From: an uncultured Alphaproteobacteria bacterium
Lineage (GTDB): Bacteria > Pseudomonadota > Alphaproteobacteria > CAAHEQ01 > UBA3637
Direction: 5' to 3'
NCBI GenBank assembly: GCA_944391735.1
Contig: CALXUR010000003.1
Span: 12,287-76,286, forward strand
DNA length: 64,000 nucleotides
In this document: in pieces, positions 9,715 to 47,354 of the stretch
How positions within the stretch are numbered: position 1 is the first letter of the stretch
How the letters are laid out: every line of letters starts with the position of its first letter
Program-made: the position numbers and the translations under genes
Notes under the pieces: model-generated
Told to the model about the DNA's origin: nothing
The model's database searches: none
Seen by the model: only the letters and a program-made list of their open reading frames with translations

Positions 9715-9741
9715 AATCGTCACGTTTTTAAAATACGAATC

Positions 9742-9772: not shown

Positions 9773-9778
9773 AAACGA

Positions 9779-13070: not shown

Positions 13071-13092
13071 GTTTCCACAGGCAGGAAAAGCA

Positions 13093-13125
13093 GACGCCCG
13101 TTTTATGACGGGCGTTTGTTTTTGT
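13093..13125. terminator. Hairpin between convergent fabI and murD-like, a likely bidirectional terminator
   Basis: GACGCCCG-ttttatga-CGGGCGT followed by TTGTTTTT. Confidence 0.5.
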
Positions 13126-13145
13126 GAGGGAGGATTCATATAAAA

Positions 13146-15699: not shown

Positions 15700-15778
15700 A
15701 ATCTTTTTTCCTTTTACAATCTGAAATAACGTATATTGTATACATATTTTATCATTTTTTCAAGGGGAGAATGTGTGA

Positions 15779-16443
15779 TGTCTGTTATCTCAAAAATAAA
15801 AACGGCGAATGTGGTTTTTGTGTTATTGATGATTTCTTTGGGGGTTGTAGGATATCTGGCTTTCAGAGATGTGTTTCGAACGCCCGAGGAACAATTGGCG
15901 TATGGGATTGAAATGCTGGATAAAAAACAATATGGAGCGGCTGAACGGGCTTTGTCGAAGGCAACGGACGGCACTTCAAAAGAAACGGTTATTCAAGCGG
16001 CGTGGCGGTTGGGCAATTTATACCGGATCGGCGCGGACGGATTTCCCGTGAACGGTCCGAAAGCCGAGATGTTCTTGGAAAAGGCCGCTTCTTTAGGGTA
16101 TGCGCCGGCGCAATATGAATTGGCTTTGATGTATGACGTGGGGGACAAAATACCCGAAAACAGGCAGAAAGCCGTCGGATGGATGAATTATGCGGCTCAG
16201 GCCGGATTACCGGAGGCTTTATACGGTTTGGGCGTTTGGGCCGAGCGCGGATATATGGGGACACCGGATATGGGTAAGGTTATAACGTTATATAAAGCGG
16301 CGGCGACCAAGGGGCATATTAACGCGATGAAAAGTCTGATTGTTTTATATGGCGACGGGTTCGGCGGTTTTCCGCACAACCTTGAATGGTCGGCATATTG
16401 GTTGAATGAATTAAATAAAAAAGCAGAGGAACAAAAGAAATGA
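15779..16443 (+). CDS. Sel1-repeat (TPR-like) membrane-anchored protein
   Basis: RBS AAGGGGAG. N-terminal TM segment. Repeated AxxxLGxxYxxG Sel1 motifs. Confidence 0.7.
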
Positions 16444-33460: not shown

Positions 33461-33536
<76 letters not shown>

Positions 33537-33573: not shown

Positions 33574-33657
33574 GGAAGTTAAGCTTTTTTGACAGATCAA
33601 GCTGAAAAGAGATTATTTTTATAAGTCGTTCTATTTAAAATAAAAGATAAAATTTAT

Positions 33658-33686
33658 TTGACTTTGGTATTGAACGAACGTATAAC
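33658..33686 (+). promoter_or_regulatory. Promoter of island gene 33706
   Basis: TTGACT, 17 nt spacer, TATAAC. The same element recurs at 34588-34616. Confidence 0.5.
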
Positions 33687-33705
33687 GGATAAAAAGGGAT
33701 AAGTC

Positions 33706-34158
33706 ATGAAATATATTCTGATTTTAACATTACTGTTGATGAGTGTATCCGCTGGTGCGGTGACAGTTGAGGATATGTCAGAAGCACGAAAGCAAGCAGA
33801 GTTTGAGGCACGTGCGATAGATAAGATTTGTTGGAACGAGGCATTTAAAGATAAGCCGGATACGACAAGAGCTATGTGGGCGGCAGCGGTGCGGAACACA
33901 GACTGCTTATATAAGGAGATAGAAAAACAGGTAAAGCTGGCTTTTTTACCACAGGATCATGAAAAGATGATGGTGTTAATTCATGCAGCCGGTAAAAATA
34001 TAGCGGATATTTACTTTGAGATGCATACCAGTAACCGGTATTGTTACGGGCATTGCGGAACTATGAATAACATCACGCATACGGTGAATGAAATGGAGTT
34101 TTTAATTGGCGTGTTAACAGATTTAATTTTGATGAACAGGATAAAAGACAGTGTATGA
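33706..34158 (+). CDS. Small secreted Cys-containing protein (150 aa), copy 1. Candidate periplasmic immunity protein or lysozyme inhibitor.
   Basis: Signal peptide MKYILILTLLLMSVSAGA. Conserved Cys including CYGHCGTM. Paralogous to 34635..35087. Convergent with a GH108 toxin remnant. Confidence 0.5.
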   Translation: MKYILILTLLLMSVSAGAVTVEDMSEARKQAEFEARAIDKICWNEAFKDKPDTTRAMWAAAVRNTDCLYKEIEKQVKLAFLPQDHEKMMVLIHAAGKNIADIYFEMHTSNRYCYGHCGTMNNITHTVNEMEFLIGVLTDLILMNRIKDSV

Positions 34159-34207
34159 TTATAATAAATATATTTTCGGGAGGGGTTAAACCTCCCGAAT
34201 GAACTAT

Positions 34208-34530
34208 TTACTATTTAATTAAAGATTTTTCAAATCGTTTTTTCCAACCATATCCGAATTTAATTTGATTGGATATGGGTTGTTTTTTTATGTCAGAAAA
34301 ACGTTGTCGGACAATATAATTGTTGACGTCTTTCATTTGTTGAAGAGTTAAATTGTTCAGGGCATTAATAGTTTGAGATCCCATGACACCGTCTTCATCC
34401 ACTTGAAAAGAAGTGAATTGATTAATACCTTGTTGCGCCCATTGGATCGGCTCTGTCAGCGACAACGGCAGGTATTGATTCGCATTAACCGTTAAGGCGG
34501 GTTGCGGAATGGTTGGTTTTGATAGATAAA
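34208..34530 (-). pseudogene. 3' remnant of a GH108/PG_binding_3 toxin gene. Track ORF 34211..34465 covers the C-terminal 84 aa.
   Basis: About 88% DNA identity to the 3' end of 35098..36360. Upstream remnant sequence 34466-34530 (ggtattgattcgcattaaccgttaaggcgggttgcggaatggt) matches an internal part of the full gene near 35943-36010. This indicates an internal deletion. Confidence 0.55.
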
Positions 34531-34587
34531 GCTAAAAAGAAATCGTCTTTATAAACCGGTATATTGAAAATAAAAGATACAAATTAT

Positions 34588-34616
34588 TTGACTTTGATGT
34601 TGAACGAAAGTATAAC
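34588..34616 (+). promoter_or_regulatory. Promoter of island gene 34635, a duplicate of 33658-33686
   Basis: TTGACT, 17 nt spacer, TATAAC. Confidence 0.5.
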
Positions 34617-34634
34617 GGATAAAAAAGGCGAGTC

Positions 34635-35087
34635 ATGAAATATATTCTGATTTTAACATTACTGTTGATGAGTGTATCCGTTGATGCAGCGGAAAAGGAA
34701 GAAGTGTGTGACACGTTGGAATGTGCGAAGGCTCAAGCGCATCACATTGGAAAAACGTGTTGGGATGAGGCGTATAAGGATGATCCGTATTCGACAGCGG
34801 AGATGCGCCGAGCCGATTTTAATGCAAATGATTGCATGTATAAAGCGGTGGAGGAGCAAGTCAGGCAAGCTTTTGAACCGACCGAGCAAGAGCAGGTTTT
34901 AGAATGGATTATGACAGGGTGGCGTGGGGTCAGTCAAACATACTGGATGATTTTTAACAATAATAAATATTGTTACGGTCGTTGTGGAACAATGCAACAT
35001 TTACGAAATACTCCTTTTGAAGCTCAATTTTTAGAGCAGGTTTTGGCTTGGTTAATTCATGCAAATGCAAAGAAAGGGAGTATTTAA
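34635..35087 (+). CDS. Small secreted Cys-containing protein (150 aa), copy 2
   Basis: Same signal peptide as copy 1. CYGRCGTM. Convergent with the intact GH108 toxin gene. Confidence 0.5.
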   Translation: MKYILILTLLLMSVSVDAAEKEEVCDTLECAKAQAHHIGKTCWDEAYKDDPYSTAEMRRADFNANDCMYKAVEEQVRQAFEPTEQEQVLEWIMTGWRGVSQTYWMIFNNNKYCYGRCGTMQHLRNTPFEAQFLEQVLAWLIHANAKKGSI

Positions 35088-35097: not shown

Positions 35098-36360
35098 TTA
35101 TTTGATAAAGTGACGTTCGCTTCTGGTTGTCAGACCTTTTCGGCGGGTTCCGTATCCGGCTGGGTTTGCGTCAGCGTATTGGTTTATTTGTCCGGAACGT
35201 TGTCGGACAATATAATTGTTGACTTCTTTCATTTGTTGAAGGGTCAAATTATTAAGGGCATTAATGGTTTGTGATCCCATGATGCCGTCTTCATCTACTT
35301 GAAAAGAAGTCAATTGATTAATACCTTGTTGCACCCATTGAATCGGCTCTATCGGAGAATGGTTTGCCAAAAGGTCAAATAAGGTCTTGGCTAACTTTTC
35401 ATTTTTAATTTCTTCAATGCGGTAGGCATCGTAATAATCCATTTTATAAATGGTTGTTGCCTGATCCCTTGTTAAATCCTTAACGGTAGCGGGATATGTT
35501 CTTCCCAAAGTCGGATGGGCCGCTTTAAAACGATTTAATGAACCTTGAATAACACCCATATTGGTCGGTTGATCTATTCTAGTCGGTCTATCTTCATAAC
35601 CGCCCTCTTCCTGATAGACAGATGACAACAGGCGATCAAAACGGGTGGTGGAACCGTAGCCCAAAAGTTCATTCATCTTATCGACCGTCAGGTCATCGGG
35701 GCGCAAAATGCCGGTTCTATCCAAACCGTTATCTCGTTGAAAAGCCGAAATGCCGTCAAACAGTTGTTGGTCGGGATAGGGGGTTATTCCCTCTGACTCC
35801 GGCAGGTAATAGCCCAAGTCGTATAAGGCCTCTTTTGTCGAGATAACGTCTGTGGGAGAGGCGAAAGAGGGGCTGACGGATTGTGTGATAAAAAAGCCCT
35901 GCGCGTCGGTATTGTTATCTGTTAAAAAGTTCGGTTTTATCGGTGGTAACGACGGGTATTGATTTGCATCAACCGTTACGGACGGTTGCGAAATGGTCGG
36001 CTTTTGATAATAATTCGGCGCGGGCAGAGAGTTTAAATCCCGAAAGGCTCGATTTAACAATTTTTCGTTTTCTCGGGCATTTTTTTCGGCACGTTTGCTT
36101 TGGCTTGTTTCTTCCCTATTTTTTTGCTGTGCTTCTTTTTCATCATGGTCTTGTCCGCAGATGCGGTTATAGGGTTTGACATGCTTACCCTTTCGCATAT
36201 GGCCGGGAACGTGAATGAGTTTTTGGCAATGTCCGGATGTGTCGTGTCCTTTGGAACTGAGTTGTCGCTTCGGGATAATTTGTGCCTGTCCCGTGAAAGA
36301 GCTCAGGTTTTGTAATATTTTGGCGATATTGATAAATGCGGTAAGAGATTTTTGATCCAT
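35098..36360 (-). CDS. Polymorphic toxin-like protein: conserved His/Cys-rich N-terminal domain, S/T/P/Q-rich linker, GH108 lysozyme-like domain and PG_binding_3
   Basis: N-terminal GHDTSGHCQKLIHVPGHMRKGKHVKPYNRICGQDHDEKEAQQKN is shared with 38438..38773, 40284..41024 and 36841..37245. The C-terminal half has the EEGGYEDR...DQPTNMGVIQ catalytic block of glycoside hydrolase family 108 and a DEDGIMGSQTINALN PG-binding segment. Start taken as Met18 of the track ORF (RBS AAAGGAAAAGC). Confidence 0.6.
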   Translation of the reverse strand: MDQKSLTAFINIAKILQNLSSFTGQAQIIPKRQLSSKGHDTSGHCQKLIHVPGHMRKGKHVKPYNRICGQDHDEKEAQQKNREETSQSKRAEKNARENEKLLNRAFRDLNSLPAPNYYQKPTISQPSVTVDANQYPSLPPIKPNFLTDNNTDAQGFFITQSVSPSFASPTDVISTKEALYDLGYYLPESEGITPYPDQQLFDGISAFQRDNGLDRTGILRPDDLTVDKMNELLGYGSTTRFDRLLSSVYQEEGGYEDRPTRIDQPTNMGVIQGSLNRFKAAHPTLGRTYPATVKDLTRDQATTIYKMDYYDAYRIEEIKNEKLAKTLFDLLANHSPIEPIQWVQQGINQLTSFQVDEDGIMGSQTINALNNLTLQQMKEVNNYIVRQRSGQINQYADANPAGYGTRRKGLTTRSERHFIK

Positions 36361-36495
36361 GCTTTTCCTTTCAATAAAAAAAGCCCGCCGCAAGAGATTC
36401 CGGACAGGCATAAAAAAATCGGGATATACTTGTCCCGATTAACTAAAAAAAGTATAGCATAAATTAAATGAAAAGTCAAGGAATATTTTCCTATT
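36361..36495. repeat. Conserved 5' leader/promoter element of the toxin genes, copy R1. Other copies: 37261-37388, 38774-38918, 41025-41165.
   Basis: AATAAAAAAGCC(C/T)G(C/T)CG..AGATTCCGGACAGGCATAAAAAAATCGGGATAC recurs immediately upstream of every toxin start codon. R1 and R4 also share AAAAGTCAAGGAATATTTTCCTAT. Confidence 0.6.
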
Positions 36496-36556: not shown

Positions 36557-36796
36557 CTATTTCGGGTTTACGGGATAGAAACGGCATATTTGTTTTTCTA
36601 TATCCCAAACACCTCGGCCATAGCAAGTGTCTTCATTAACAACGCATTCAGTTCCCCAATCACAGTGCGCAAATATAAATCCCTTGGGACAAATACCACC
36701 CGAGAGACAATCATCCTCCCGTAAATCTATATAAGTCATAAGAGCGACTGTCACTATGGTAAAAACTGTCAAACACATAAAAAAGAAAAACTTCAT
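36557..36796 (-). CDS. Small secreted Cys-rich protein (79 aa, 8 Cys). Candidate immunity protein downstream of the decayed toxin 36841..37245.
   Basis: Signal peptide MKFFFFMCLTVFTIVTVAL. Same strand as the toxin remnant and directly 3' of it. Confidence 0.4.
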   Translation of the reverse strand: MKFFFFMCLTVFTIVTVALMTYIDLREDDCLSGGICPKGFIFAHCDWGTECVVNEDTCYGRGVWDIEKQICRFYPVNPK

Positions 36797-36840: not shown

Positions 36841-37245
36841 CTAATATTTCAAAGGTAAGCCTGATGGTCTGAAAATGCCACAGCTTTCACTTAATGTTTT
36901 TCCTTTATTGGCTCCCCGCAATCCGGAAATATTTGCTTTCATGTCAGATAAACTTTCATTAGGACCATATTTAAAAACATCTTTACTTTCTTTTAACAGA
37001 GATAACAGAAGGCCTACTAGGTTACCGTAGACACCCCGTGAACCGGCTTCATAGTTTGCTTTACAGTGAAAGTATTTATCTCCGCCGATAAAATTAGTTT
37101 TATTCATATCATTAAAATTTCGGATGAAATCTTTGAGCGGTGCAAATAGTCCGGTCGTTGTTTTTTCCGCTTGATTTTTTTATTGAGCTTCTTTTTCGTC
37201 GGGTGCTGGCACACCGATTGCATTTCCGATGGGTTCTGTTTCCAT
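36841..37245 (-). pseudogene. Decayed toxin paralog: the N-terminal domain carries an internal in-frame deletion and a CAA-to-TAA nonsense codon (37180-37182). The C-terminal small domain is of unknown function.
   Basis: METEPIGNAIGVPAPDE joins directly to KEAQ(*)KNQAEK, with the central roughly 55 codons missing. The same frame continues into track ORF 36841..37107 (FIGGDKYFHCKANYEAGSRG...). Confidence 0.5.
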
Positions 37246-37478
37246 GATCTTTTTCCTTTCAATAAAAAAGCCCGCCGCAAGAGATTCCGGACAGGCATAA
37301 AAAAATCGGGATACACTTTTATTTTAAAAAACTTGTTTTTTACTTTTGAAATTGATAGAATTGTATAAAGGTTTAAAGAGGATATCTAATGAAATATGTA
37401 TTTGGAATTATTTTGGGATTGTTTTTGGTTTCTTGTCAAACACAAGAACCGGTTCAATTTAAAAATCCGATTTTTTAT
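37195..37478. repeat. Duplicated module of about 285 bp: toxin N-terminus, leader, divergent intergenic region and lipoprotein N-terminus. Second copy at 38725-39008.
   Basis: Near-identical stretches from CGTCG(G/A)GTG..CACCGATTGCATTTCCGATGGGTTCTGTTTCCATGATCTTTTTCC through ...CAATTTAAAAATCCGATTTT. Confidence 0.6.
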
Positions 37479-37772
37479 GAAACACTTTATCCTATTTCCA
37501 AGACGGTTCGGGAGACGCGATTGACACCGACGAAGATATATGTGAATGCATTTATTTCGGAAAAAGAGTGTCGATTGCTAAAGAATACCGAGACCGTTTT
37601 GGAGTTTTCCTGTGAATACGACCATCCGTTCAGCGGGCATTTTTCGGATGTATTTTATCGGTATGTTATTGAAGGGGAGGAATCAAAATATACCAATTGT
37701 TTGATTGTTAGGTTGGAAATGCCCGGTGGAACAGCCTGGTTTTGTATTCACCGAGAAAAACCACAGGATTAA
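37389..37772 (+). CDS. Lipoprotein (127 aa), island-associated. Candidate immunity protein.
   Basis: MKYVFGIILGLFLVSCQTQEPVQFKNPIF lipobox. The N-terminal 30 aa are identical to 38919..39389. Convergent with the lysozyme-like toxin domain gene. Confidence 0.55.
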   Translation: MKYVFGIILGLFLVSCQTQEPVQFKNPIFYETLYPISKTVRETRLTPTKIYVNAFISEKECRLLKNTETVLEFSCEYDHPFSGHFSDVFYRYVIEGEESKYTNCLIVRLEMPGGTAWFCIHREKPQD

Positions 37773-37829
37773 GAATGTGATCGTTGCATATCGACTATTT
37801 GACTACTCGGCTGAAGATATATAGTGCAA

Positions 37830-38773
37830 CTATTTGTTTCTATATTTACAAGGAGAATAAAACCATCCATTGATTAATGGAATTTCCCGTAAAGTATTTC
37901 TGGCCCAATCATTGCGGGTTTTTCCGACCTGATATCTATTTACCTCGTTAATCATTTGAAAAACATTTTTTTTGTTAACGCCCTCAAAGAAAAAATGCCA
38001 TTTTTCAGAATTAAAATTGTGCCCCATATTATATTGCATGTCTAATAAAACCATTTGTAGCGTTCTGGGATATGTTTCAAATGCCGGAAATTTTGATTCT
38101 AATTCAGCTAAGTCATTTCCCAAATGTTCCATTGTTTTATCAATAATTGTGTGTTCGGATAGAGTTAGTTCTTGGGAATGATTTGTTACACGGAAGTCTT
38201 CTGAAGTATAATTTTTTCCAAATATTTTCTGTTTTTGAAAATCCAAGAGTCGTTTATATTCGCCTAGTTTTTGCTCGGTTGTAGCCTCTTTTCCTTGATA
38301 CATCCAGGGGAGTGATATAAAGGTTTTTTGATTCGGAATATATAACCCGCTGGCGGCTGTTATCTTTCCCAATGTATCCAAATAGGCATAATTGATTGAT
38401 CCTTCATGTTTTTTTAGATATGGCCAGTATGCTTGAATTAATTCATCATATTTTCGTTGTTTTTTTTAGATACAGTTTCTTTTTGAGAAAGTGTTTCTTT
38501 GTTAACTTTTTCCGCTTGGTTTTCTTGTTGAGCTTCTTTTTCGTCATGGTCACGGCCACAGGTGCGGTTATAGGCGTTGACGGGTTTGCCTTCGCGGCTA
38601 TGAGCGGGAACATGTATCATTTTTTGACAATGCCCCGATGTGTCGTGTCCGTTTTGAGAATTATCGCTGTTTCCGAACAGAAAAGCGAATAGATTTTGTC
38701 GGTTATTATTGACTTGGTTGTTTTCGTCGAGTGTCGGTACACCGATTGCATTTCCGATGGGTTCTGTTTCCAT
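37830..38773 (-). pseudogene. Toxin paralog split by a frameshift at a T8/A8 homopolymer: N-terminal conserved domain (38438..38773) and T4-lysozyme-like C-terminal domain (37830..38381)
   Basis: The N-domain ORF stops 20 codons after the A8 run. The downstream ORF frame is open from immediately after the run. Inserting one A fuses them. The C-terminal domain has LLDMQYNMG...NRYQVGKTRNDWARNTL, resembling the phage/T4 lysozyme (GH24) C-terminal lobe. Confidence 0.55.
38460..38467. repeat. T8 homopolymer (A8 on the coding strand) at the frameshift site
   Basis: gttg-TTTTTTTT-agat. A +1 slippage restores a roughly 310-aa open reading frame. Confidence 0.6.
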
Positions 38774-38918
38774 GATCTTTTTCCCTTCAATAAAAAAAAG
38801 CCTGCCGCAAGAGATTCCGGACAGGCATAAAAAAATCGGGATACACTTTTATTTTAAAAAACTTGTTTTTTACTTTTGAAATTGATAGAATTGTATAAAG
38901 GTTTAAAGAGGATATCTA

Positions 38919-39389
38919 ATGAAATATGTATTTGGAATTATTTTGGGATTGTTTTTGGTTTCTTGTCAAACACAAGAACCGGTTCAATTTAAAAATCCGA
39001 TTTTTAATAAAAAACTAGAAGCTATTTCCAAAATTCTTAATGATGTAAAAATAACTCCGACAGAAATTATAGATCTAAAGGATCCGGAGGTATTACCGGC
39101 AACGTGTGAGTTATTGTCCGATGAAGGATATCGTATTATTATGAAGTGTGTGCAGCCCTATCGAACAATACCGGTGCAAACGGTGTATTACCGTTTTACA
39201 AATATGGGAAAATATGAACCATTCTATTCGTCAGAAAAAAATCTGTGTGAAATTCATCAGGAGCAATGTGATGATATGGATTTTCAAAATTTTTACTCTT
39301 GGGGTGTTTTTGTCGTTCGATTAAACGATGGGGAGGATTGTGGTCCTCAGATGCCTGAAGACCAACTCCCCGAATGGTTGATCAGGTAA
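38919..39389 (+). CDS. Lipoprotein (156 aa), island-associated. Candidate immunity protein.
   Basis: Lipobox LVSC. The C-terminal roughly 90 aa (ATCELLSDEGYRIIMKCVQPYRTIPVQTVYYRFTNMGKYEPFYSSEKNLCEIHQEQCDDMDFQNFYSWGVFVVRLNDGEDCGPQ) are identical to 39445..39912. Confidence 0.55.
   Translation: MKYVFGIILGLFLVSCQTQEPVQFKNPIFNKKLEAISKILNDVKITPTEIIDLKDPEVLPATCELLSDEGYRIIMKCVQPYRTIPVQTVYYRFTNMGKYEPFYSSEKNLCEIHQEQCDDMDFQNFYSWGVFVVRLNDGEDCGPQMPEDQLPEWLIR
39081..39350. repeat. 270-bp direct repeat at near-100% identity. Second copy at 39610-39879.
   Basis: Identical from GATCCGGAGGTATTACCGGCAACGTGTGAG through GAGGATTGTGGTCCTCAG. It encodes the shared C-terminal part of the two lipoproteins. Confidence 0.6.
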
Positions 39390-39444
39390 ATGTTATCTTC
39401 TATTTTATGATTGAGGTAATTATATAAAGTTTTAAAGAGAGTAT

Positions 39445-39912
39445 TTGATGAAGCATGTGTTCGGGGTTATTTTGAGTGTGTTCTTGGTTGCTTGTCAAAC
39501 GCAAGAAGCGGTTCAATTTAAAAACCCGGTTTTTAATAGAAAGTTGGCATCAAATGTGAGTATGGATTACGATATTGTGATAACGCCGAGAATCATGGTC
39601 ACTTTAAATGATCCGGAGGTATTACCGGCAACGTGTGAGTTATTGTCCGATGAAGGATATCGTATTATTATGAAGTGTGTGCAGCCCTATCGAACAATAC
39701 CGGTGCAAACGGTGTATTACCGTTTTACAAATATGGGAAAATATGAACCATTCTATTCGTCAGAAAAAAATCTGTGTGAAATTCATCAGGAGCAATGTGA
39801 TGATATGGATTTTCAAAATTTTTACTCTTGGGGTGTTTTTGTCGTTCGATTAAACGATGGGGAGGATTGTGGTCCTCAGGCACCTAAGGACCAACTTCCC
39901 GAATGGTTTTGA
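39445..39912 (+). CDS. Lipoprotein (155 aa), tandem paralog of 38919..39389 with a divergent N-terminal third
   Basis: MMKHVFGVILSVFLVACQTQEAVQFKNPVF lipobox. The C-terminus is identical to the upstream paralog. Confidence 0.55.
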   Translation: MMKHVFGVILSVFLVACQTQEAVQFKNPVFNRKLASNVSMDYDIVITPRIMVTLNDPEVLPATCELLSDEGYRIIMKCVQPYRTIPVQTVYYRFTNMGKYEPFYSSEKNLCEIHQEQCDDMDFQNFYSWGVFVVRLNDGEDCGPQAPKDQLPEWF

Positions 39913-39936
39913 TTATACTATTTTTATTTTTTTGTT

Positions 39937-40251
39937 TTAAAGAGTAAAAGCTAAATATATATTCAACCCGATAAAATACAAAAGCGGATAACTTAATATT
40001 ATAACGGATTGCCACGGTTGTTGGTGATGACGCAGTCGTGCATACCATAAACAAAGGATAATCAGTATTGCTTCGGTTAAGTTGACTACAGTATAGTTAA
40101 GGGGATGATGATACATCCAACCTAAATTATCCGCTTGCCAGGGTATTTCCGGATTGGCAATATCTTGGAAACACCCGATAAAGAGAAAGCCTGTCAGAAA
40201 GATATTAAAAGCGGCAAGTAAAAAAAATAGAATGCGTTGAATATATTTCAT
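39937..40251 (-). CDS. Small polytopic membrane protein (104 aa). Candidate immunity protein directly downstream of the Tlde1-like toxin.
   Basis: Three predicted TM segments. Same strand as 40284..41024, 32 nt downstream. Confidence 0.45.
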   Translation of the reverse strand: MKYIQRILFFLLAAFNIFLTGFLFIGCFQDIANPEIPWQADNLGWMYHHPLNYTVVNLTEAILIILCLWYARLRHHQQPWQSVIILSYPLLYFIGLNIYLAFTL

Positions 40252-40283: not shown

Positions 40284-41024
40284 CTAGTATTTAACTTGAA
40301 CAATAACATCATATCCATTATTTTGAAACCATTTTGCAAAATCAGCCATTGCCTTTGTTAGATCAATACATCCGGCAGAACCTGGCGTTAAGCCTCCATG
40401 AATAGAAAAATTATTTCTTCCATATAGATTAGTATCATTCGCTGGTGTTAACCAAATGCGTTGTTCTCCCCATGCAGCTGTTCCACCTCTCCACTGTCCG
40501 CCACCTATTGAAGACTTAAATTTTTGCCATGCTCCCAAATTTTCCCACTTTTGAAAATCGCTGATTTTTGCAACATAATTGTCTTCGGGAAGTGGACCAT
40601 AATTTTTTAAATCCTGATAATTTGGATGTTGAAAGCCCGGTCGTCCGGATACACCTTTCCATTCCTTAATAATTTCTCCATTTTCGTGCAGGGTAAGACT
40701 TTTACCATTAAAAGATAAATACTGCCCATTTTTTAGGTTTAATGGAGTATTCCATTGTGTATATGGATTATTTTTTTGTTGAGCCTCTTTTTCGTCGTGG
40801 TTACGGCCGCAGATGCGTTCATAGGCGTTGACGGGTTTGCCTTCGCGGCTATGAGCGGGAACATGTATCATTTTTTGACAATGCCCCGATGTGTCGTGTC
40901 CGTTTTGAGAATTGTCGCTGTTTCCGAACAGAAAAGCGAATAGATTTTGTTGACTGTTATTTCTCGGATTGTTTTCGTCGGGTGCTGGCACACCGATTGC
41001 ATTTCCGATGGATTGTGTTTCCAT
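40284..41024 (-). CDS. Polymorphic toxin-like protein: conserved His/Cys-rich N-terminal domain and Tlde1/DUF2778-like (YkuD L,D-transpeptidase-fold) C-terminal domain
   Basis: N-terminus METQSIGNAIGVPAPDENN...NGHDTSGHCQKMIHVPAHSREGKPVNAYERICGRNHDEKEAQQKN. C-terminus has ...GRPGFQHPNYQDLKNYGPLPEDNYV and FSIHGGLTPGSAGCIDL (His...SxGC catalytic motif of the YkuD/Tlde1 family). Confidence 0.6.
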   Translation of the reverse strand: METQSIGNAIGVPAPDENNPRNNSQQNLFAFLFGNSDNSQNGHDTSGHCQKMIHVPAHSREGKPVNAYERICGRNHDEKEAQQKNNPYTQWNTPLNLKNGQYLSFNGKSLTLHENGEIIKEWKGVSGRPGFQHPNYQDLKNYGPLPEDNYVAKISDFQKWENLGAWQKFKSSIGGGQWRGGTAAWGEQRIWLTPANDTNLYGRNNFSIHGGLTPGSAGCIDLTKAMADFAKWFQNNGYDVIVQVKY

Positions 41025-41242
41025 GGTCTTTTTCCTTTCAATAAAAAAGCCTGTCGGATCAGATTCCGAACAGGCATTAAAAAAATCGGGATACATTTAT
41101 CCCGATTAACTGAAAGATATCATATCATAAATCAGATTAAAAGTCAAGGAATATTTTCCTATAAATAGAAATATTTTCTTTATTGACTTTTGTCGGGAGG
41201 CGTGAAATACTGAACGAAAGTTGACGATGAAAGGAGAAGGTT

Positions 41243-41887
41243 ATGAAAAAAGTGTTGCTTGGAATCGGATGTTTATTGTTGGGGGCATGTTGTCATTCTT
41301 TACCGGGACAGTTACCGGAAGAGGTTGTATTTGAAAATGTGGATGAGGGGGCTCAGGTCGTTTATATGCCGACCTCGGGCGTTTGGACGCGGGGCGGTAT
41401 GGCGGACGATCGGATTGTTTGCACGCGTCATGTGTCATCCGGAACCGGCAGTTATTCGGAATACGTTTGTTCGGGGCAGCGTTTCGGTTTATCTTCAACA
41501 CAAGAATTTGTTTTGAAGGGCAGGCTTATCGGATACAGTGCGCATACGTTTAAATTTTATGAAACGGTTTTTCGGAACGGTTCTTTTGACACGCGGGAAT
41601 TAACGGTGTCGGCGGTTCAGGATTTGTTTCCCGACATGCGGATTGTGCCCGTATCCGATGTTAAAAAAGGCATTTTAACCGTTCGGCGGTGTGGCAGGGA
41701 TACGGAAGATGTTTTAATTGTGAATGATACGCCCGCCGATTTTTATCGTTATTCGTTTGATCCGCCGGTTAATGCCGGAACGCCGTTTAAATCCATTTTA
41801 ACCATGTCGGCACCTCAAACGGTTGTGCTGTCTCATTTTGATGAGGATACACCGGACTACCCGGCGTTAAGAATACGGATTCAATAA
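41243..41887 (+). CDS. Lipoprotein (214 aa), core-like GC. Divergent from the toxin leader copy R4.
   Basis: MKKVLLGIGCLLLGAC lipobox. Confidence 0.5.
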   Translation: MKKVLLGIGCLLLGACCHSLPGQLPEEVVFENVDEGAQVVYMPTSGVWTRGGMADDRIVCTRHVSSGTGSYSEYVCSGQRFGLSSTQEFVLKGRLIGYSAHTFKFYETVFRNGSFDTRELTVSAVQDLFPDMRIVPVSDVKKGILTVRRCGRDTEDVLIVNDTPADFYRYSFDPPVNAGTPFKSILTMSAPQTVVLSHFDEDTPDYPALRIRIQ

Positions 41888-41919
41888 AAGAGAGTCGGAG
41901 TTAGTTTTCGAGTATCGGA

Positions 41920-43035
41920 CTAAAGCGTGTCATCAGATGGAACGGGGTGGTATTGTCCGCCGGACAAAGGTTGGGAAACACCGGTTGTGTCCGGAAAGGT
42001 AATCGGCAGTTCCATTAGGGAGCGCACCGCCAAAAACGCGTATCCGGCGGCGTCCAGATTATAGTTCGGCATATCCGCTTCCGCAATGGTTTCCGTATTG
42101 TTGCCGAGGGCTTGCTTTAACCACAATACCAACGTCGGATTTAAGGTTCCGCCGCCCGTTAAAATCCATTTAACCGGTTTATCGGGCAAGAAAGCCTGAG
42201 CCCGAACGATACTTTGAACGATAAAAGCCGTCAACGTAGCCGCTCCATCGGCGGGCGAACACCCTTCGACCTGTTCCAAAAGAGGGGTGAAATCGTCTCG
42301 ATCCAAAGTTTTAGGAGGTGGTTGAAGAAGGTAAGGTGTTTTCAGTAAATAATCCAGCAATCTTTGATTGACAGTGCCTTTGGCGGCCCATTGTCCATCG
42401 AAATCCATATCCATGCCGGCATGGCGACGAAGCCAGCGATCCAGAAGCAGACATCCGACGCCGATATCAAAAGCGCGCAGTTCGCCCAACTGTCCGATGA
42501 ATGTGAGGGTTGAAATCCCGCTGAGCGATACAATGCACAGAGGCTTGGGTTGTGTTCGCGTGACAGCCTCCAGGAATGTCGGTAAGACGGGACCGCCCGT
42601 TCCGCCGGCTTTCAAGTCCGTTTGAATGAAACGGTCAATAACCGGAATCTGTAATTTTCGGGCAAGTGTATCGCTGTGTCCCAGGCTGATATCCAATCGA
42701 TCTGCGGTGTGGTGGCGCACGGAATGACCGGAATAACCGCAAATATCGATATGTGGAACATGCCGTGCTGTTTTATTAATCAATTCTTGCGCGACGGCAA
42801 GATGTTCCGCCGTGATACGGTCATCTAATGATTTTAACAGGTTCATGTCCGTGAAATCTTCGGGATATGACAGCTTTAAAATATCATCTCGTAATTCCGG
42901 CGAATAAGGGCGCGTTAGCGTCAGAGGTTCTTCCAAAATATCCAAGCCGTCCGTTTTCAAAATACAGGCGTCGATATAGACGGCGGATGAATCCGAATAA
43001 ATACCGAGAGCTGTTTCAGGTTCCAATGTTTTCAT
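41920..43035 (-). CDS. anmK: Anhydro-N-acetylmuramic acid kinase
   Basis: 371 aa ASKHA-fold sequence with AnmK blocks (DIGVGCLLLDRW, LTGGGT). Confidence 0.8.
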   Translation of the reverse strand: MKTLEPETALGIYSDSSAVYIDACILKTDGLDILEEPLTLTRPYSPELRDDILKLSYPEDFTDMNLLKSLDDRITAEHLAVAQELINKTARHVPHIDICGYSGHSVRHHTADRLDISLGHSDTLARKLQIPVIDRFIQTDLKAGGTGGPVLPTFLEAVTRTQPKPLCIVSLSGISTLTFIGQLGELRAFDIGVGCLLLDRWLRRHAGMDMDFDGQWAAKGTVNQRLLDYLLKTPYLLQPPPKTLDRDDFTPLLEQVEGCSPADGAATLTAFIVQSIVRAQAFLPDKPVKWILTGGGTLNPTLVLWLKQALGNNTETIAEADMPNYNLDAAGYAFLAVRSLMELPITFPDTTGVSQPLSGGQYHPVPSDDTL

Positions 43036-43038
43036 GTA

Positions 43039-43785
43039 TTATCCTTTGAATGGTGTTGGTAGTGTATCTTGAGCTTCTTCAATACGGTCATACAACTCAT
43101 CCAGAAAAGCGCGACGATGTAATCCCGGCTGAATTGGTTTTAAAAACCGCACGGTAACCGTTCCCGGATATTTGATAATTTTATTTTTGGGCCAGCAATA
43201 GCCACTGTTCAGGGCAACCGGAACAACGGGAACGTTGCATTGTTCATACAGGAACGCGACGCCGGGGCTATACGGTTTTTTTGTTCCCGGTTTTGTCCGA
43301 GTTCCTTCCGGGAAAATAATCAGATTCATGCCCTCTGCTAAATGTTTTTGAACACCGGCCAGCATTTTCCGCATTGTTTTCGCGCCGCCCTTTCGATCAA
43401 TGGGGATACACCCGACCTTTAAAAAATACAATCCCGCGAGAGGAATCAGCATCAGTTCGCGTTTCAAAACATAAAAAGTATTGGGGATGATGTGATGGAA
43501 AATGGTTGTTTCCAATGCCGACTGATGTTTGGAGGCCACGATATAGCCGTTTTCTTTCGGTAAATTTTCAAGGCCTTCAAACCGTATTTTGACACCACAG
43601 AAAAACCGCAATAACGCGTTGGCCAATCGTGTCCAGTAAATCGGAAAATACAAAGCAATGCGGCGCGGCATAAACAGTGTCGGAATCATCACGAAGAACA
43701 GAAACAGCGTGATGAGGTAAAAAACAAGTGTGAACAAAGCGGAACGTATCAGATTAATCATGAATAAAGCACCATATCCTTTCAA
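43039..43785 (-). CDS. plsC: 1-acyl-sn-glycerol-3-phosphate acyltransferase
   Basis: HQSALE (HxxxxD-type) and FPEGTRT motifs. Confidence 0.8.
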   Translation of the reverse strand: MKGYGALFMINLIRSALFTLVFYLITLFLFFVMIPTLFMPRRIALYFPIYWTRLANALLRFFCGVKIRFEGLENLPKENGYIVASKHQSALETTIFHHIIPNTFYVLKRELMLIPLAGLYFLKVGCIPIDRKGGAKTMRKMLAGVQKHLAEGMNLIIFPEGTRTKPGTKKPYSPGVAFLYEQCNVPVVPVALNSGYCWPKNKIIKYPGTVTVRFLKPIQPGLHRRAFLDELYDRIEEAQDTLPTPFKG

Positions 43786-44359
43786 TTAACTTTTGCAAAT
43801 GTGTCGCGATAAATTTGTGATATTCGACGAATAAAAGCCATGCGTAGCGCGTGCGTACCCATTCAACGGAATTATCAAACGATTTCGGAAAAACGGGCAG
43901 CGGGATGATTTTCAGATTCGGATTTTGGTTCAGAACTTCAAAAATACTGCGAGGCATGTGGTAAAAGCTGGTGACCAACAGGACGGATCGGATATTTTTG
44001 GTATGAATCCAATCCGCTGTTTCCCGTGCGTTGCCACGTGTATCCTCCGCCTCATATCCCAATGTGACATTTTCGGCTAATTCCTCCGGCAGGGAACGGA
44101 TTAAATCGGGGGGTTGCACCGCTTTGTTGACCCCGGAAATCAACAAATTTTTGGCATAATTTTCTTTTAACAGTTCCAACGCGGTGTTGATTCTGTCCCC
44201 GCCGCCGGTCAGAACAACGATGGCGTCTGTCGGTTCTGCCGGTGTAAAACGAAAACTGAGAGCATAAAGGCTGAACAAGCCGAATCCGATAATCCAAACG
44301 CTTAATCCGATGATAAAGACGTAGGAGGAAAGCAGGGGCGTCAGTTTCTTTTTCTTCAT
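43754..44359 (-). CDS. DUF218 / YdcF (ElyC)-like membrane-anchored protein
   Basis: VVLTGGGDR...LISG...TRGNARE...LLVTSFYHMPR pattern. Confidence 0.6.
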   Translation of the reverse strand: MKKKKLTPLLSSYVFIIGLSVWIIGFGLFSLYALSFRFTPAEPTDAIVVLTGGGDRINTALELLKENYAKNLLISGVNKAVQPPDLIRSLPEELAENVTLGYEAEDTRGNARETADWIHTKNIRSVLLVTSFYHMPRSIFEVLNQNPNLKIIPLPVFPKSFDNSVEWVRTRYAWLLFVEYHKFIATHLQKLIERIWCFIHD

Positions 44360-45249
44360 TACAGAAATCGTTTCAGATAGACCATAACCGTTTTAAAAGT
44401 TGTCAGAAAGGCCAGAACGGAAAGAGCAAAGGGAACACTTAATAAAACACCCCATTGCACCGCGGAGAGGGTTGGTTTCAGGATGAAATCAAAGGAGGCT
44501 CCCTGAATAAAAAATGACACGCCCGCCATAATCGGCAGTGTCAGGAAAAAACCGAACAAACTGCCCGTCAGTGTTAATTGAAAGCTGCGGCCGGCATATT
44601 GTTGCGTAACATATAGATCACCGGCCCCCATCATATGGACAAGCGCGATGACCGGTTCATGGACGGTCAGGCTGGTGCGGGTCGCATAGATAACCGTGAA
44701 TGCGGCCGTCAGTGTCAATAAGACAAGAATAAAGCCGATCAGTTTGATAATGCCGGAAGAAATACGTAACAACGGATTCAACCAAATACGATGACTATCC
44801 AACACGGCGGCCGGCACTTGGGCGGCCAGATCCGTTTTTATTTGAGCCACATCCAGATTGCCGTTCGGATCCACGGTGACATCAATTAATTTCGGTAAAG
44901 GTAATTCCGTTACGATTGCATTTTCCCCCAGCCAGGGTGTCATCAGGTCTCCCATTTGGCGATCGGATAAGACTGTCGCGCCCAAGATACCTTCACTGGA
45001 ACGCAAAATTGTCAGGGTTGTTTCAATTTCACGATCGACTTTTTCCCCGCGTGCGACGCCTGATTCGGTGTAAGTGGGAATTTGAACGGTCAAAGAGCCG
45101 GAAACGGTTCGTTGCCAACGTGTTACGGACGAATATGTTGTCATGCCGGCCGCCAAAATCAAAACAGCGATGAATGTCATCAGCATGCTCATCCACGGTA
45201 AAAACAGCCGCGCCGGATCGGTTGCAAAAAAGATATTTGATTTAGTCAT
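44359..45249 (-). CDS. ftsX: Cell division ABC transporter permease FtsX-like
   Basis: Four-TM FtsX topology. Overlaps ftsE. Confidence 0.8.
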   Translation of the reverse strand: MTKSNIFFATDPARLFLPWMSMLMTFIAVLILAAGMTTYSSVTRWQRTVSGSLTVQIPTYTESGVARGEKVDREIETTLTILRSSEGILGATVLSDRQMGDLMTPWLGENAIVTELPLPKLIDVTVDPNGNLDVAQIKTDLAAQVPAAVLDSHRIWLNPLLRISSGIIKLIGFILVLLTLTAAFTVIYATRTSLTVHEPVIALVHMMGAGDLYVTQQYAGRSFQLTLTGSLFGFFLTLPIMAGVSFFIQGASFDFILKPTLSAVQWGVLLSVPFALSVLAFLTTFKTVMVYLKRFL

Positions 45250-45988
45250 TGCCTGTCCCCCGATTAAATAGTTTTGAGGCCATGTCTTTATACTGGTTCG
45301 GTTGAATAACGCTTAACCGGCCTTTTTCCAAATGTAGCCGGGGAAAATTAAAGTGTTTGATCAGTCCTTCATTATGGGTGGCGATAACAACTGTTGTGCC
45401 CAGTTTATTAAGTTCCAGAAACAAATGTAGCAATCTTTTGGCCATAATGTCATCCACGTTTCCCGTCGGTTCGTCGGCCATCAAAAGCGTCGGTCGATTA
45501 ATAACGGCACGGGCGATGGCAACGCGTTGTTTTTCTCCGCCGGACAATTCGGGCGGATAGGCGCGCATTTGGTGTTCCAGGCCGACCCAAACCAACAGTT
45601 CCGAAACATGCCGCCGGATTTCCGATTCTTTGGCTCCGGCGATGCGTAGAGGAAGAGCCACGTTGTCAAACGCCGTCAAATGATCCAACAGGCGGAAATC
45701 CTGAAACACGACACCCATTTGCCGTCGGATGCGGGCTTTGGCCGCCCGTGTCAGCTCGTCAACGGCGTAACCGAACAGACGGACGCGTCCTTTTGTCGGA
45801 AGATGATAAAGATACAGCAGACTCAGCAAAGATGTTTTACCGGCACCGCTTTCACCCGTCATAAAATAGAACGAACCGGGATCCAGTGTGAACTGAATAT
45901 CTTTCAAAACCTCCGGTCCCGAATCGTATCGGAACGAAACGCCGTTAAATTCGGCGACGGGAGATGACAATTTATTTTGCGTGGCCAT
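45242..45988 (-). CDS. ftsE: Cell division ATP-binding protein FtsE
   Basis: Walker A GESGAGKTS, ABC signature LSGGEKQR and Walker B. Confidence 0.9.
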   Translation of the reverse strand: MATQNKLSSPVAEFNGVSFRYDSGPEVLKDIQFTLDPGSFYFMTGESGAGKTSLLSLLYLYHLPTKGRVRLFGYAVDELTRAAKARIRRQMGVVFQDFRLLDHLTAFDNVALPLRIAGAKESEIRRHVSELLVWVGLEHQMRAYPPELSGGEKQRVAIARAVINRPTLLMADEPTGNVDDIMAKRLLHLFLELNKLGTTVVIATHNEGLIKHFNFPRLHLEKGRLSVIQPNQYKDMASKLFNRGTGND

Positions 45989-46073
45989 TTTTAATCCTTA
46001 TCAAAATAGTTGTATCTTTTTTTGAAATCGTATATATTACATTTACACTATTTTTTTGAAAAGGGAAAGACAA

Positions 46074-47354
46074 ATGTTTATCATATGCCCAAAATGTTCT
46101 GCAAAGTATCGACTTCCGGATGATATTGATCTGAAAGAAGGGCAAAAATTGAAATGTTCCGCCTGCGGTTTGGTTTTTGAAAAAGGGCAGGAGGCACCTT
46201 TTGTATTAGAGCGACCGGAATCTTCTGTCCCGGATCAGGGGATATCGACCGAGGAGAGTAAACCTCAGAATAATCCGCCCCCCGAATGGACGGCACCGGA
46301 ATATGTGTCCGGCGGGCAATCCAGCGCGGAACCGGCCGTTTCGGATGATGAAGTTTTCAGAACGCCGATGTTCGACCGTGCCATAGCGGTGGGCAATCGG
46401 GAGGCGGCCGGCTTGAACGTGTCCCCCGCATCATTCGGTCGTTCCGGAGATATTATACCGGAGGCTTTTGTTCCGGTCGAATCGTCGTCTCCCAAGACGT
46501 CGAAAAAAAGCGGTTTGATTTTAGTTGTCATTTATTTAGTGGCTATTATCGGTTTTTGTTGCGCGGCGTGGCATTATCGTGACATGTTGATGCCGGCATT
46601 TTATTCTTTTATGCCGCGGCCGACGAATGAACGTGCCATTCGTCCCGTTGTTCGAGAAGATGTCCCGGTGACGAAAAAGGATTCTAAACCGGTTGAAAAA
46701 TCCGCCGTTGTTCAGCTGGAAAAGAAAAAAAGTCCTGATGAGGCGATTCCCGTAAAAGGGGAAACGGTTGTTTCGGATCAATCGGAGCGGGGGATGGAAG
46801 AAGTCGTTAAAACCGTTCCGGTGGAAACCATTGTTATTGAACCTGTTGCTTTACCGGCGGAACCTGTTCCTGTTAATCCGGCAGAGGCGGGGGCGGTAGT
46901 TGGAGCGGCGGTATCCGCCCAACCGGTTATTGATCGTGCGGTCGATGTTTCGGACAAGTCGGGTGCGGTGCAAAAGAGGGAAGACACAGTCGATTCAACA
47001 CAAGCGGAGCCTCAACCGGTTTTTGACGCGGAGCCGTTGTTTGACATGGTTGCCGAACCGGTGCCGACTGCGTCCGAGAATGAATTAAGTATTCAAGATG
47101 TTCATTTTCGGATTGTTCCCGATGAGGGAGCCGGGGAACAGTTATTGGTTGAAGGAACGTTGCGGAACACCGCCTCTGACAGTCGGAGTATTCCTGTTTT
47201 AACGGCGACCGTTTGGAGTGGAAACAGTCAGATTTTAGGGCAGAAAAAGGTGCATGTAACGCAAGAGCAAATCGGCGCGGGACAAATCGTGTCTTTTTAT
47301 ACAAGTTTCACGCCGGCACCGGTGGGAGCCAGTCATGTTGATGTCACTTTTTAG
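46074..47354 (+). CDS. MJ0042-type zinc-ribbon protein with a central TM segment and a DUF3426-like C-terminal domain
   Basis: ICPKCSAKY...CSACG N-terminal zinc ribbon. Pro/Glu-rich linker. Divergent from ftsEX. RBS AAAGGGAAAGACAA then ATG at 46074. Confidence 0.6.
   Translation: MFIICPKCSAKYRLPDDIDLKEGQKLKCSACGLVFEKGQEAPFVLERPESSVPDQGISTEESKPQNNPPPEWTAPEYVSGGQSSAEPAVSDDEVFRTPMFDRAIAVGNREAAGLNVSPASFGRSGDIIPEAFVPVESSSPKTSKKSGLILVVIYLVAIIGFCCAAWHYRDMLMPAFYSFMPRPTNERAIRPVVREDVPVTKKDSKPVEKSAVVQLEKKKSPDEAIPVKGETVVSDQSERGMEEVVKTVPVETIVIEPVALPAEPVPVNPAEAGAVVGAAVSAQPVIDRAVDVSDKSGAVQKREDTVDSTQAEPQPVFDAEPLFDMVAEPVPTASENELSIQDVHFRIVPDEGAGEQLLVEGTLRNTASDSRSIPVLTATVWSGNSQILGQKKVHVTQEQIGAGQIVSFYTSFTPAPVGASHVDVTF

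Follow-up and report, generated by a model that had tools for sequence, protein, structure and literature searches.

The window analysed here is a 64,000-nucleotide (nt) stretch of contig CALXUR010000003.1 from an uncultured Alphaproteobacteria bacterium, and it holds a low-GC island at about 33.5-41.9 kb, in which the guanine-plus-cytosine (GC) content falls from about 46% to 36-40%. The island ends at a tRNA-Ala(CGC) gene (33461..33536, plus strand; ARAGORN and Rfam) on one side and at a 214-amino-acid (aa) lipoprotein gene and anmK on the other. We think it probable that this region is a chromosomal polymorphic-toxin/immunity island built from undescribed protein families, a view carried by the repeats, synteny, mosaicism and domain content that we observe. 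Small lipoprotein genes lie among its toxin genes and, judged by gene order across strains, each likely belongs to the toxin that it meets tail-to-tail (convergent) and not to the one from which it diverges. The original prediction had joined each toxin and its divergent lipoprotein into a unit with a shared regulatory region; that pairing fell in the comparison of strains, where the divergent partner varies and the convergent partner is constant.

Four toxin genes on the minus strand share an N-terminal region of about 90 aa, here called the N-domain, and differ in their C-termini (Pfam). Toxin 1 (35098..36360) ends in a GH108 muramidase, Toxin 2 (36841..37245) in an SAA-like (lipocone) domain, Toxin 3 (Tox3; 37830..38773) in a putative distant GH24/T4-lysozyme-like domain and Toxin 4 (40284..41024) in an L,D-transpeptidase-like Tlde1 domain. 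Three lipoprotein genes are found among them on the plus strand. The first encodes a 127-aa protein (37389..37772), candidate immunity protein of Tox3, with which it is convergent. The second encodes a 156-aa protein (38919..39389), placed in the 155-type by family alignment and an orphan immunity candidate for a second subtype of GH24-like toxin (type 2). The third encodes a 154/155-aa protein (w155; 39448..39912), also of the 155-type and a mosaic by its identity in quarters and its 3' end.

Related loci were gathered by exact-protein look-ups and two collection scans; L002, L007, L008, L010 and L011 come from related strains, and L004-L006, L012, L015 and L016 are more distant. With partner genes named by the length of their products and read from the anmK side, the window has the order 214 / Tlde1, 104, 155, 156 / Tox3, 127 / SAA, 79 / GH108, 150 / GH108 remnant, 150 / tRNA. 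L002/L003 has 214 / SAA, 79 / Tlde1, 104, 155 / GH108, 151, 150, and L007 has 214 / Tox3, 127 / SAA, 79 / Tlde1, 104, 155, 157. The order is 214 / type-2 GH24-like toxin, 155 / GH108, 150 in L008 (a metagenome-assembled genome at NCBI, GCA_963636545.1), 214 / type-2 GH24-like toxin, 154, 155 / Tox3, 127 in L010, and 214 / Tox3 remnant, 127, 143 in L011. In L004, a different species ('uncultured Alphaproteobacteria bacterium'), it is 221 / Tox3 (intact, 307 aa), 125 / tRNA-Ala. The tRNA-Ala gene also bounds the island in L002, L004 and L008. Module order thus differs among strains, which bears out the earlier proposal that the island's modules are shuffled by recombination, and the loci place this reshuffling at the toxins' conserved 5' ends.

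Across these loci, the downstream small gene of each toxin type travels with it between strains and species (SAA/79, Tlde1/104, GH108/150, Tox3/127 and type-2 GH24/155). In the window, L004, L005, L006, L007, L010 and L011, genes of the 127-type lie tail-to-tail with Tox3 or with what remains of it, separated by a 57-nt gap in the window and overlapping by 7 nt in L004, 16 nt in L005 and 4 nt in L006 (with a Tox3 remnant). The 155-type is tail-to-tail, across a 3-nt gap, with the type-2 toxin in L008 and L010. Tail-to-tail pairs of GH24-like and lipoprotein genes, ranging from a 16-nt overlap to a 71-nt gap, occur in L004, L005, L006 (remnant), L008, L010, L015 and L016, and the pairing persists in the last two although their GH24-like genes lack the Cys/His N-domain. 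On the divergent side, the 155-type faces Tox3 in some strains and GH108 in others, and the 127-type has as its neighbour the SAA-like toxin, a second lipoprotein gene or a core gene. The 214-aa lipoprotein gene (41243..41887, plus strand) lies in a flank block that is 98% identical (40770-47000) and stays by anmK in the window and in all six loci spanning this end (L002, L004, L007, L008, L010 and L011), while the toxin facing it is Tlde1, SAA-like, Tox3 or type-2 GH24-like. By its synteny it is a fixed flank gene and not a cassette component; the Tlde1 toxin gene and the lipoprotein gene at 41243 do have the divergent geometry noted earlier, but they do not form the pair that had been proposed.

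Positions 2-2546 of L010 are collinear with 37372-39914 of the window, ending 2 nt past the stop codon of the 155 gene; beyond 39914, the window has the 104-aa gene and Tlde1, and L010 has the type-2 toxin. Because the 155-type abuts the type-2 toxin elsewhere and collinearity breaks at this point, the 155 and 156 genes of the window are best read as orphan immunity genes, whose type-2 toxin was presumably displaced by the Tlde1 and 104-aa module. Orphans and remnants include the toxin remnant at 34211-34465 with the gene at 33706-34158, an array in L006, and the 155 and 156 genes of the window, which have no toxin.

The two repeats and the lipoprotein family

Two repeats mark the island, and for both a chance match is ruled out. 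The first had been described as a module of about 285 bp in two copies; self-alignment (self-BLAST and pairwise alignment) confirms it and extends it to 311 bp, with 95.2% identity between 37193-37501 and 38721-39031 and one 2-nt indel in an A-run. Identity is close to perfect over 37264-37482 and is then lost within about 35 nt. The module contains codons 1 to about 17 of the toxin, the toxin leader, about 70 bp of intergenic sequence and codons 1 to about 37 of the lipoprotein. It is the back-to-back joint of two constant 5' arms. In both copies, the leader (37270-37318 and 38800-38848) lacks the 5' half of hairpin 1 and the canonical toxin promoter, which is missing here and not shared. The same joint of toxin and lipoprotein 5' ends occurs in L007 (SAA/127) and L010 (Tox3/155), and L002 and L008 have a form that retains the full promoter.

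The second repeat, 39081-39350 and 39610-39879 on the plus strand, was found exactly as predicted, with 270 of 270 positions identical. It is a maximal exact match, with mismatches at both edges, inside a 499-bp ungapped alignment (38881-39379 against 39410-39908) of 87% identity, all 65 mismatches of which lie outside the exact tract, 5' of it (38886-39080) or 3' of it (39351-39368). Copy 1 lies in the 156-aa gene; copy 2, in the 154/155-aa gene, is a putative gene-conversion tract, and the repeat looks like an internal conversion patch copied from the 156-aa gene into its neighbour. The 90 identical residues reported for the tandem lipoproteins are real, but they lie inside the proteins and not at the C-terminus, where 13 and 11 residues differ (QMPEDQLPEWLIR in the 156-aa protein against QAPKDQLPEWF in the 155-aa protein). 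Outside the island, the 64-kb window has no second copy of any part of it, and the tandem lipoprotein pair recurs in independent assemblies of other samples, L007 (ERZ16268180) and L010 (ERZ24773545).

The predicted domain swapping among lipoproteins also holds, as their alleles are mosaics. By quarters, the identity of w155 is 1.00/0.96/0.68/0.74 to the 155 allele of L007 (over the first 176 nt without a difference) and 0.75/0.83/1.0/0.89 to the 156 gene of the window, the latter match including the 270-bp tract; its 3' end resembles the L007 protein again (PQAP.DQLPEWF). This mosaic protein is on record for this scaffold only. Other alleles mix signal-peptide type, second segment and C-terminal type in several combinations. 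The lipoproteins behave like immunity genes, the candidate function proposed for them earlier.

These proteins are bacterial lipoproteins by their lipoboxes, read from the translations against [LVI][ASTVI][GAS]C: LVS-C in the 127- and 156-aa proteins, LVA-C in the 155-aa protein and LGA-C in the 214-aa protein. The GH24-linked family is small, with 12 database hits and three aligned invariant Cys, and a scan of JGI metagenomes found it at five loci. The 127-aa protein is 100% identical in four strains, and the 156-aa protein is 99% identical to the 154-aa protein of L010. Both subtypes share the lipobox signal peptide and about 30 conserved residues (E..F.NP.F...L......TP..I). The lipoprotein at 37389 had been thought to share the N-terminal module only; we find that residues conserved across the family run to about residue 50 and that the three Cys align. 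In AlphaFold models (predicted local distance difference test, pLDDT, 66 for the 127-aa and 80 for the 156-aa protein), five long beta-strands stand at matching positions.

A distant locus, L006 (7052-9870; ENA ERZ28637120 scaffold_280), is purely an array of orphan immunity genes: five lipoprotein paralogues occur beside a gene for a 121-aa membrane protein, and no toxin is intact there, Tox3 surviving as a C-terminal remnant. The intergenic segments of L006 are repeated too.

Toxins, their control module and other partner genes

The core of the N-domain reads GHDTSGHCQKxIHVPxHxRxGKxVxxYxRxCGxxHDEKEAQQ. An exhaustive HMMER search of 1.84 billion representative proteins gave 16 hits. A TPR protein and a protein of 934 aa that matched in eight short stretches were dropped as spurious, leaving 14 representative clusters. 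Twelve sequences were retrieved; 11 of them are fused to SAA-like, Tlde1/YkuD, GH24-like or GH108 domains and one, P0021 (116 aa), has no C-terminal domain. One N-terminal region is thus fused to several unrelated C-terminal toxin domains, as in polymorphic toxins. A word-indexed homologue search with the N-domain found two proteins, and a scan of JGI metagenomes found none. There was no match in Pfam, NCBIfam or the PDB, where the profile search was empty even at E 10. The toxins have no signal peptide and no known domain for secretion or trafficking. The scanned window proteins gave no link to a secretion system, and only L005 lies near type IV secretion system genes. This locus (8001-16372; ENA ERZ27241663 k141_70308) has a Tox3-type toxin with the Cys/His core only and a lipoprotein, adjoining tRNA-Ala(GGC). 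Farther out, it encodes a VirB11-like ATPase as well as a protein of 2156 aa that combines a TrbI/VirB10 domain with long repeats rich in Gly and Val, the sole hint of a secretion machine nearby.

Toxin 1, of 420 aa from MDQKS, combines the N-domain with PG_binding_1 (PF01471) and GH108 (PF05838) domains; it scores 57 bits against the NCBIfam holin-associated N-acetylmuramidase, far under the curated cut-off of 240. A C-terminal remnant of a GH108-type toxin (34211..34465, minus strand) retains PG_binding_3 (PF09374, E 1.5e-6), and its segment 34300-34457 matches the 3' end of the intact gene (35196-35353) at 91% identity. Toxin 2 matches Pfam SAA at E 5e-14 and is degenerate, as its N-domain core is deleted and an in-frame TAA stands at 37182-37180; its intact allele is P0015. 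Toxin 4 (246 aa) matches the Tlde1 family (PF10908) at 36.5 bits against a cut-off of 30.1, and its relative P0019 also matches YkuD. For Tox3, two relatives, P0020 (27.7 bits) and P0023 (22.9 bits), exceed the cut-off of Pfam Phage_lysozyme (PF00959, 22.3), and the family profile finds a weak match in the PDB to T4 lysozyme and gp5 lysozyme only (E 0.002). The family carries the GH24 motif EG..Y.D..G..T.G.G, and the catalytic-motif residues HEGSINYAYLDTLGKITAASG are present. Given this domain content (GH108, SAA-like, GH24-like and Tlde1), all four C-termini are predicted to target peptidoglycan or its lipid-linked precursors.

Across strains, partner genes are intact and toxins are often broken. 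In the window, Tox3 is split into two open reading frames (38438-38773 and 37830-38381) at an A8 run of the minus strand (38460-38467). It is also out of frame in L007 (at about 4100) and has an internal deletion in L011; intact orthologues are found in L004 (307 aa) and L010 (314 aa). The poly-A tract is TCT followed by A8 in the window and TCTG followed by A7 in L007, both out of frame, and TCTG followed by A8 in the intact gene of L010 (at about 1100), which is one base longer. Although a G/A substitution separates the window and L007 alleles, the slippery heptamer A_AAA_AAC stands in the zero frame in both, and a -1 slip there would restore full Tox3. The split could mark the gene as a pseudogene, act as an on/off switch set by tract length or be used for programmed frameshifting. 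Internal deletions affect the type-2 toxin of L008 and L010, a stop codon interrupts the SAA-like toxin of the window and of L002, and GH108 is split in L002. A comparison of SAA-like alleles (window 37180-37245, L002 10001-10591, L007 2554-2958 and P0015) gave all four combinations of the deletion of the Cys/His core with the in-frame TAA (EKEAQ*), which implies recombination or recurrent mutation where the N-domain ends, inside a span of a few tens of bases.

A full 5' control module precedes Toxin 1 (36361..36479) and Toxin 4 (41025..41147), both on the minus strand, as found by promoter and terminator scans. It consists of a near-consensus sigma-70 promoter (TTGACT-17-TATACT or TATGAT, with a preceding TG), two hairpins and a ribosome-binding site. 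At Toxin 1, the promoter TTGACT-17-TATACT (36479-36451) is followed by hairpin 1 with U7 (36440-36417) and hairpin 2 with U7 (36409-36383); at Toxin 4, the promoter TTGACT-17-TATGAT (41147-41119) is followed by hairpin 1 (41107-41084) and hairpin 2 (41075-41049). Hairpin 1 is ATCGGGA...TCCCGAT followed by U7, and hairpin 2 is a stem of about 8-10 bp followed by U6-U8. The two-hairpin fold is shared by nine non-identical full leaders (window, L002, L004, L007, L008 and L010), across which hairpin 2 shows compensatory double changes at three pairs. No Rfam family matches the leader. This arrangement suggests that the leader attenuates transcription or places toxin expression under antitermination control. 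An integron (attC-like) reading of the hairpins was rejected, since they lie between a strong promoter and a ribosome-binding site, have U-tracts on the coding strand only and show RNA covariation. Upstream of Tlde1 in L007 (about 2125-2190), the -10 box is fused straight to the 3' half of hairpin 2 and both terminator hairpins are gone, a natural leader-less variant.

The other partner genes were also compared. Two 150-aa secreted proteins are encoded on the plus strand. One (34635..35087) is convergent with the GH108 toxin across a 10-nt gap and is its candidate immunity protein; the other (33706..34158), which has a signal peptide, is tail-to-tail with the remnant and is a candidate orphan immunity protein for a GH108-type toxin. 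A 150-aa gene lies beside the GH108 toxin in L002 and L008 as well. Between the two paralogues, the upstream region and codons 1-17 are alike (33587-33758 against 34517-34687, 87% over 172 bp) and the remainder diverges, so that this stretch (33587-35087), with the GH108 remnant in between, follows the same constant-5'/variable-3' plan as the lipoproteins. Directly downstream of the SAA-like toxin, on the same strand, a 79-aa membrane-anchored Cys-rich protein (36557..36796, minus) is the candidate immunity protein; it holds this position in three strains, namely the window, L002 (94% aa identity) and L007 (99%). Tlde1 is directly followed by a co-directional gene (39937..40251, minus) for a 104-aa multi-pass membrane protein, its candidate immunity protein, which travels with Tlde1 in L002 and L007 and for which a homologue search found one cluster, 98% identical, without any wider family. 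In L012 (465-1783; AUXO018521271.1), from a different lineage, Tlde1, a 121-aa membrane protein and a convergent 127-type lipoprotein follow each other in a window-like order; the 121-aa protein has no sequence similarity to the 104-aa protein. Pfam and NCBIfam gave nothing useful for the lipoproteins, the 79-, 104-, 150- and 214-aa proteins or Tox3. A lipoprotein of 214-221 aa with no family match is kept by anmK across species, and the 214-aa gene has a promoter-like site (TTGACT-17-AATACT, 41183-41211) back-to-back with whichever toxin promoter adjoins it.

Outside the island, the scanned reading frames are core genes: SecY, two DNA topoisomerase/gyrase A-family genes (PF00521), an M1 peptidase, ribosomal protein S1, CarD, MscS, AnmK and an FtsE-like ABC ATPase. 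Rfam at gathering thresholds found two tRNAs only in the whole window. Integration of a tRNA-flanked island was considered and rejected, since neither an integrase nor a direct repeat of the tRNA end was found.

Probable cassette exchange and competing explanations

We favour an explanation by cassette shuffling and convergent pairing, which we regard as likely as a whole. Each toxin would consist of a constant 5' module (promoter, two-hairpin leader and N-domain of about 90 aa) and a variable, wall-attacking C-terminal domain, and the small envelope-located protein encoded behind it would be its immunity protein. Partners would be co-directional for the SAA-like toxin (79 aa) and Tlde1 (104 aa), and convergent for GH108 (150 aa) and the GH24-like toxins (lipoproteins). 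In the lipoproteins, a separate constant 5' module (upstream region, signal peptide with lipobox, about 30 conserved residues) would precede a variable beta-sheet C-terminal part, with the 127-type matched to Tox3 and the 155-type to the second GH24-like toxin. As toxin and lipoprotein lie tail-to-tail, each with a constant 5' module, the constant modules flank the matched variable halves, and cassettes that abut would bring constant arms back-to-back, as in the 311-bp joint. Homologous recombination in these arms could then reorder, replace and delete cassettes between strains. Here, Tlde1 and the 104-aa gene would have displaced a type-2 GH24-like toxin and left two 155-type genes orphaned, and the 270-bp identity would be a conversion patch passed from the 156-aa gene to its neighbour.

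A bolder version of this explanation is tentative, and we would not bet on it. In that version, the island is an undescribed polymorphic toxin system, in which a Cys/His core of about 35 residues (HD.SGHC....HV..H.R.G..V..Y.R.CG..H) is the sole constant protein part and specifies the export route. The bracketing arms would be a selected design, so that a double crossover swaps toxin and antidote together, and expression would be gated by the two-terminator leader (precisely deleted in one strain) and by the length of the A_AAA_AAC tract.

Several points weigh against the explanation that we favour. Tox3 itself has no direct Pfam or PDB match, and its assignment to GH24 draws on its relatives and a weak profile match. 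Beyond about residue 50, the 127- and 155-types align with hhalign at E 0.056 over 19 columns, which is not significant, and our claim therefore covers only the N-module that they share and their agreement in Cys spacing and predicted strand order. Foldseek against the PDB gave best E values of 0.15 (127-aa) and 0.28 (156-aa), matching no solved immunity protein or lysozyme inhibitor (MliC/PliC, PliG, Ivy, Pim and Tsi families), and the lipoproteins have no Pfam or NCBIfam match. A secretion system was not seen among the scanned window proteins, which are housekeeping. Toxicity, immunity, termination and delivery are roles that we infer from sequence and synteny, every sequence compared comes from a short-read metagenome assembly, and the exact 270-bp identity is present only in this scaffold, with no independent replicate.

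This last point raises the possibility that the repeats, chiefly the 270-bp tract, are a short-read assembly artefact caused by a path switch between paralogues or co-existing strains. The window is part of a metagenome scaffold (ENA ERZ28613925 scaffold_72, 175 kb, from short reads), the mosaic w155 protein is confined to it, and a de Bruijn graph could change path in the exact 35-60-nt stretches that A-type and B-type alleles have in common. Nevertheless, we consider an artefact unlikely, as both the tandem pair and the joint of toxin and lipoprotein 5' ends occur in the independent assemblies L007 and L010, the tandem junction (39351-39447) is unique sequence, and conversion patches inside tandem immunity paralogues are documented (PMC9484751).

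The 155 and 156 genes could also belong to the Tlde1 module and supply, for instance, a further immunity factor or an accessory one that acts with the 104-aa protein. Tlde1, the 104-aa gene and the 155-type are contiguous in three strains (window, L002 and L007), and in L012 a 127-type lipoprotein is convergent behind Tlde1 and a membrane protein; these linkages also count against our pairing and leave room for a role towards Tlde1. On the other side, the 155-type abuts the type-2 GH24-like toxin across 3 nt in L008 and L010, where Tlde1 is absent, and lies beside a 127 gene without Tlde1 in L011. The 121-aa membrane gene occurs without Tlde1 in L005 and L006, beside lipoproteins that pair with Tox3, and the family overall tracks GH24-like genes, including those without the N-domain. 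On balance, membership of the Tlde1 module seems improbable to us.

A phage origin finds its best case in L015 (4938-9032; JGI contig Ga0209064_1000260), where a GH24/pesticin-like gene without the N-domain is tail-to-tail with two tandem lipoprotein paralogues. A phage nozzle gene (T7 gp12-like; Pfam Phage_nozzle, E 6e-9) stands just upstream of this pair, which may therefore itself be of phage origin or serve in superinfection exclusion. Extended to the window, this would make the GH24-like and lipoprotein genes a phage-derived lysis/superinfection-exclusion pair and the island a graveyard of phage muramidase genes, GH108 and GH24 being typical endolysin folds. We find this quite unlikely for the island: phage structural, holin and integrase genes are absent from the window and related loci, the N-domain is also joined to domains of interbacterial toxins (Tlde1 and SAA-like), and orphan arrays and C-terminal remnants are hallmarks of polymorphic toxins.

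Finally, the cognate divergent unit with one bidirectional regulatory region, despite the divergent neighbours at three of the four window toxins (SAA/127, Tox3/156 and Tlde1/214), the weak promoter-like sites on both strands of the 70-bp spacer and the back-to-back promoter candidates at 41147 (minus) and 41183 (plus), is very hard to sustain, as the partners of the 214, 155-type and 127-type genes change between strains, the GH108 toxin has a co-directional 79-aa gene upstream instead of a divergent lipoprotein, and the 311-bp joint has no canonical toxin promoter.

Known systems and biological meaning

The cassette organisation that we propose has counterparts in several systems. Orphan toxin-immunity cassettes have reportedly been described for Rhs and contact-dependent inhibition (CDI) systems, and Neisseria carries MafB/MafI cassettes. 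These systems have the same plan of a constant N-terminus, a variable C-terminal toxin and a downstream immunity gene, as well as C-terminal remnants with orphan immunity, as at 34211-34465 and 33706-34158. In contrast, the toxins here are small (134-420 aa), lack Rhs/YD, haemagglutinin-repeat and MafB_N domains, and every cassette has its own promoter and full N-domain. In pesticin/Pim and other GH24-like antibacterial muramidases, a T4-lysozyme-like domain kills in the periplasm and a periplasm-facing protein neutralises it. The L015 homologue has a weak Pfam Pesticin match (E 4e-4); unlike pesticin, the toxins here have no FyuA-binding/translocation domain, and the lipoprotein has no sequence or fold match to solved structures.

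In the V. cholerae type VI secretion system (T6SS), an incoming effector/immunity pair displaces the resident effector by homologous recombination within conserved 5' sequence and the old immunity gene stays (Kirchberger et al. 2017, PMC5361080). The displacement process, the retained immunity gene and the strain-to-strain differences in arrays are alike (PMC5361080). However, the 64-kb window has no T6SS genes, the constant part is a short undescribed N-domain with promoter and leader, and several immunity candidates are convergent with the toxin and carry their own constant 5' module. The type VII secretion system immunity paralogues esaG and tipC recombine through conserved sequence blocks (Garrett et al. 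2022, PMC9484751) and resemble the lipoproteins in being tandem, non-identical paralogues with high-identity blocks, mosaic alleles and copy gain or loss. They differ in that the locus here is Gram-negative and has lipoproteins as its immunity candidates; these have their conserved block at the 5' end (signal peptide), and their genes meet the toxin tail-to-tail. Tlde1/Tldi1 of Salmonella is a T6SS L,D-transpeptidase-like effector with its immunity protein (PMC9638812). The Tlde1 domain of Toxin 4 is above the Pfam threshold, but no PAAR, VgrG or T6SS context accompanies it, and its partner is a 104-aa multi-pass membrane protein without detectable wider relatives. Prok-SAA lipocone toxins belong to polymorphic toxin systems, and one immunity type beside them has four absolutely conserved cysteines (Burroughs, Aravind and co-workers 2025, PMC12419801). 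Toxin 2 is likewise SAA-like and followed by a small Cys-rich membrane-anchored protein, but it is fused to the undescribed Cys/His N-domain and is degenerate in the window. The 79-aa protein, which has six Cys, may correspond to that conserved-cysteine immunity type.

From a practical perspective, the corrected pairing means that immunity tests should match each lipoprotein with the convergent muramidase and treat 155 and 156 as orphans. Otherwise, the island behaves as expected of polymorphic toxin loci, a familiar kind of bacterial warfare locus, in which toxins are repeatedly inactivated across strains and the candidate antidotes are kept intact. It offers a compact natural example of cassette exchange with homology arms at both sides. 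To what is known, it adds a rare, undescribed toxin N-domain, a two-terminator leader, and a new lipoprotein family whose genes accompany those of GH24-like muramidases, both in toxin islands and in a prophage.

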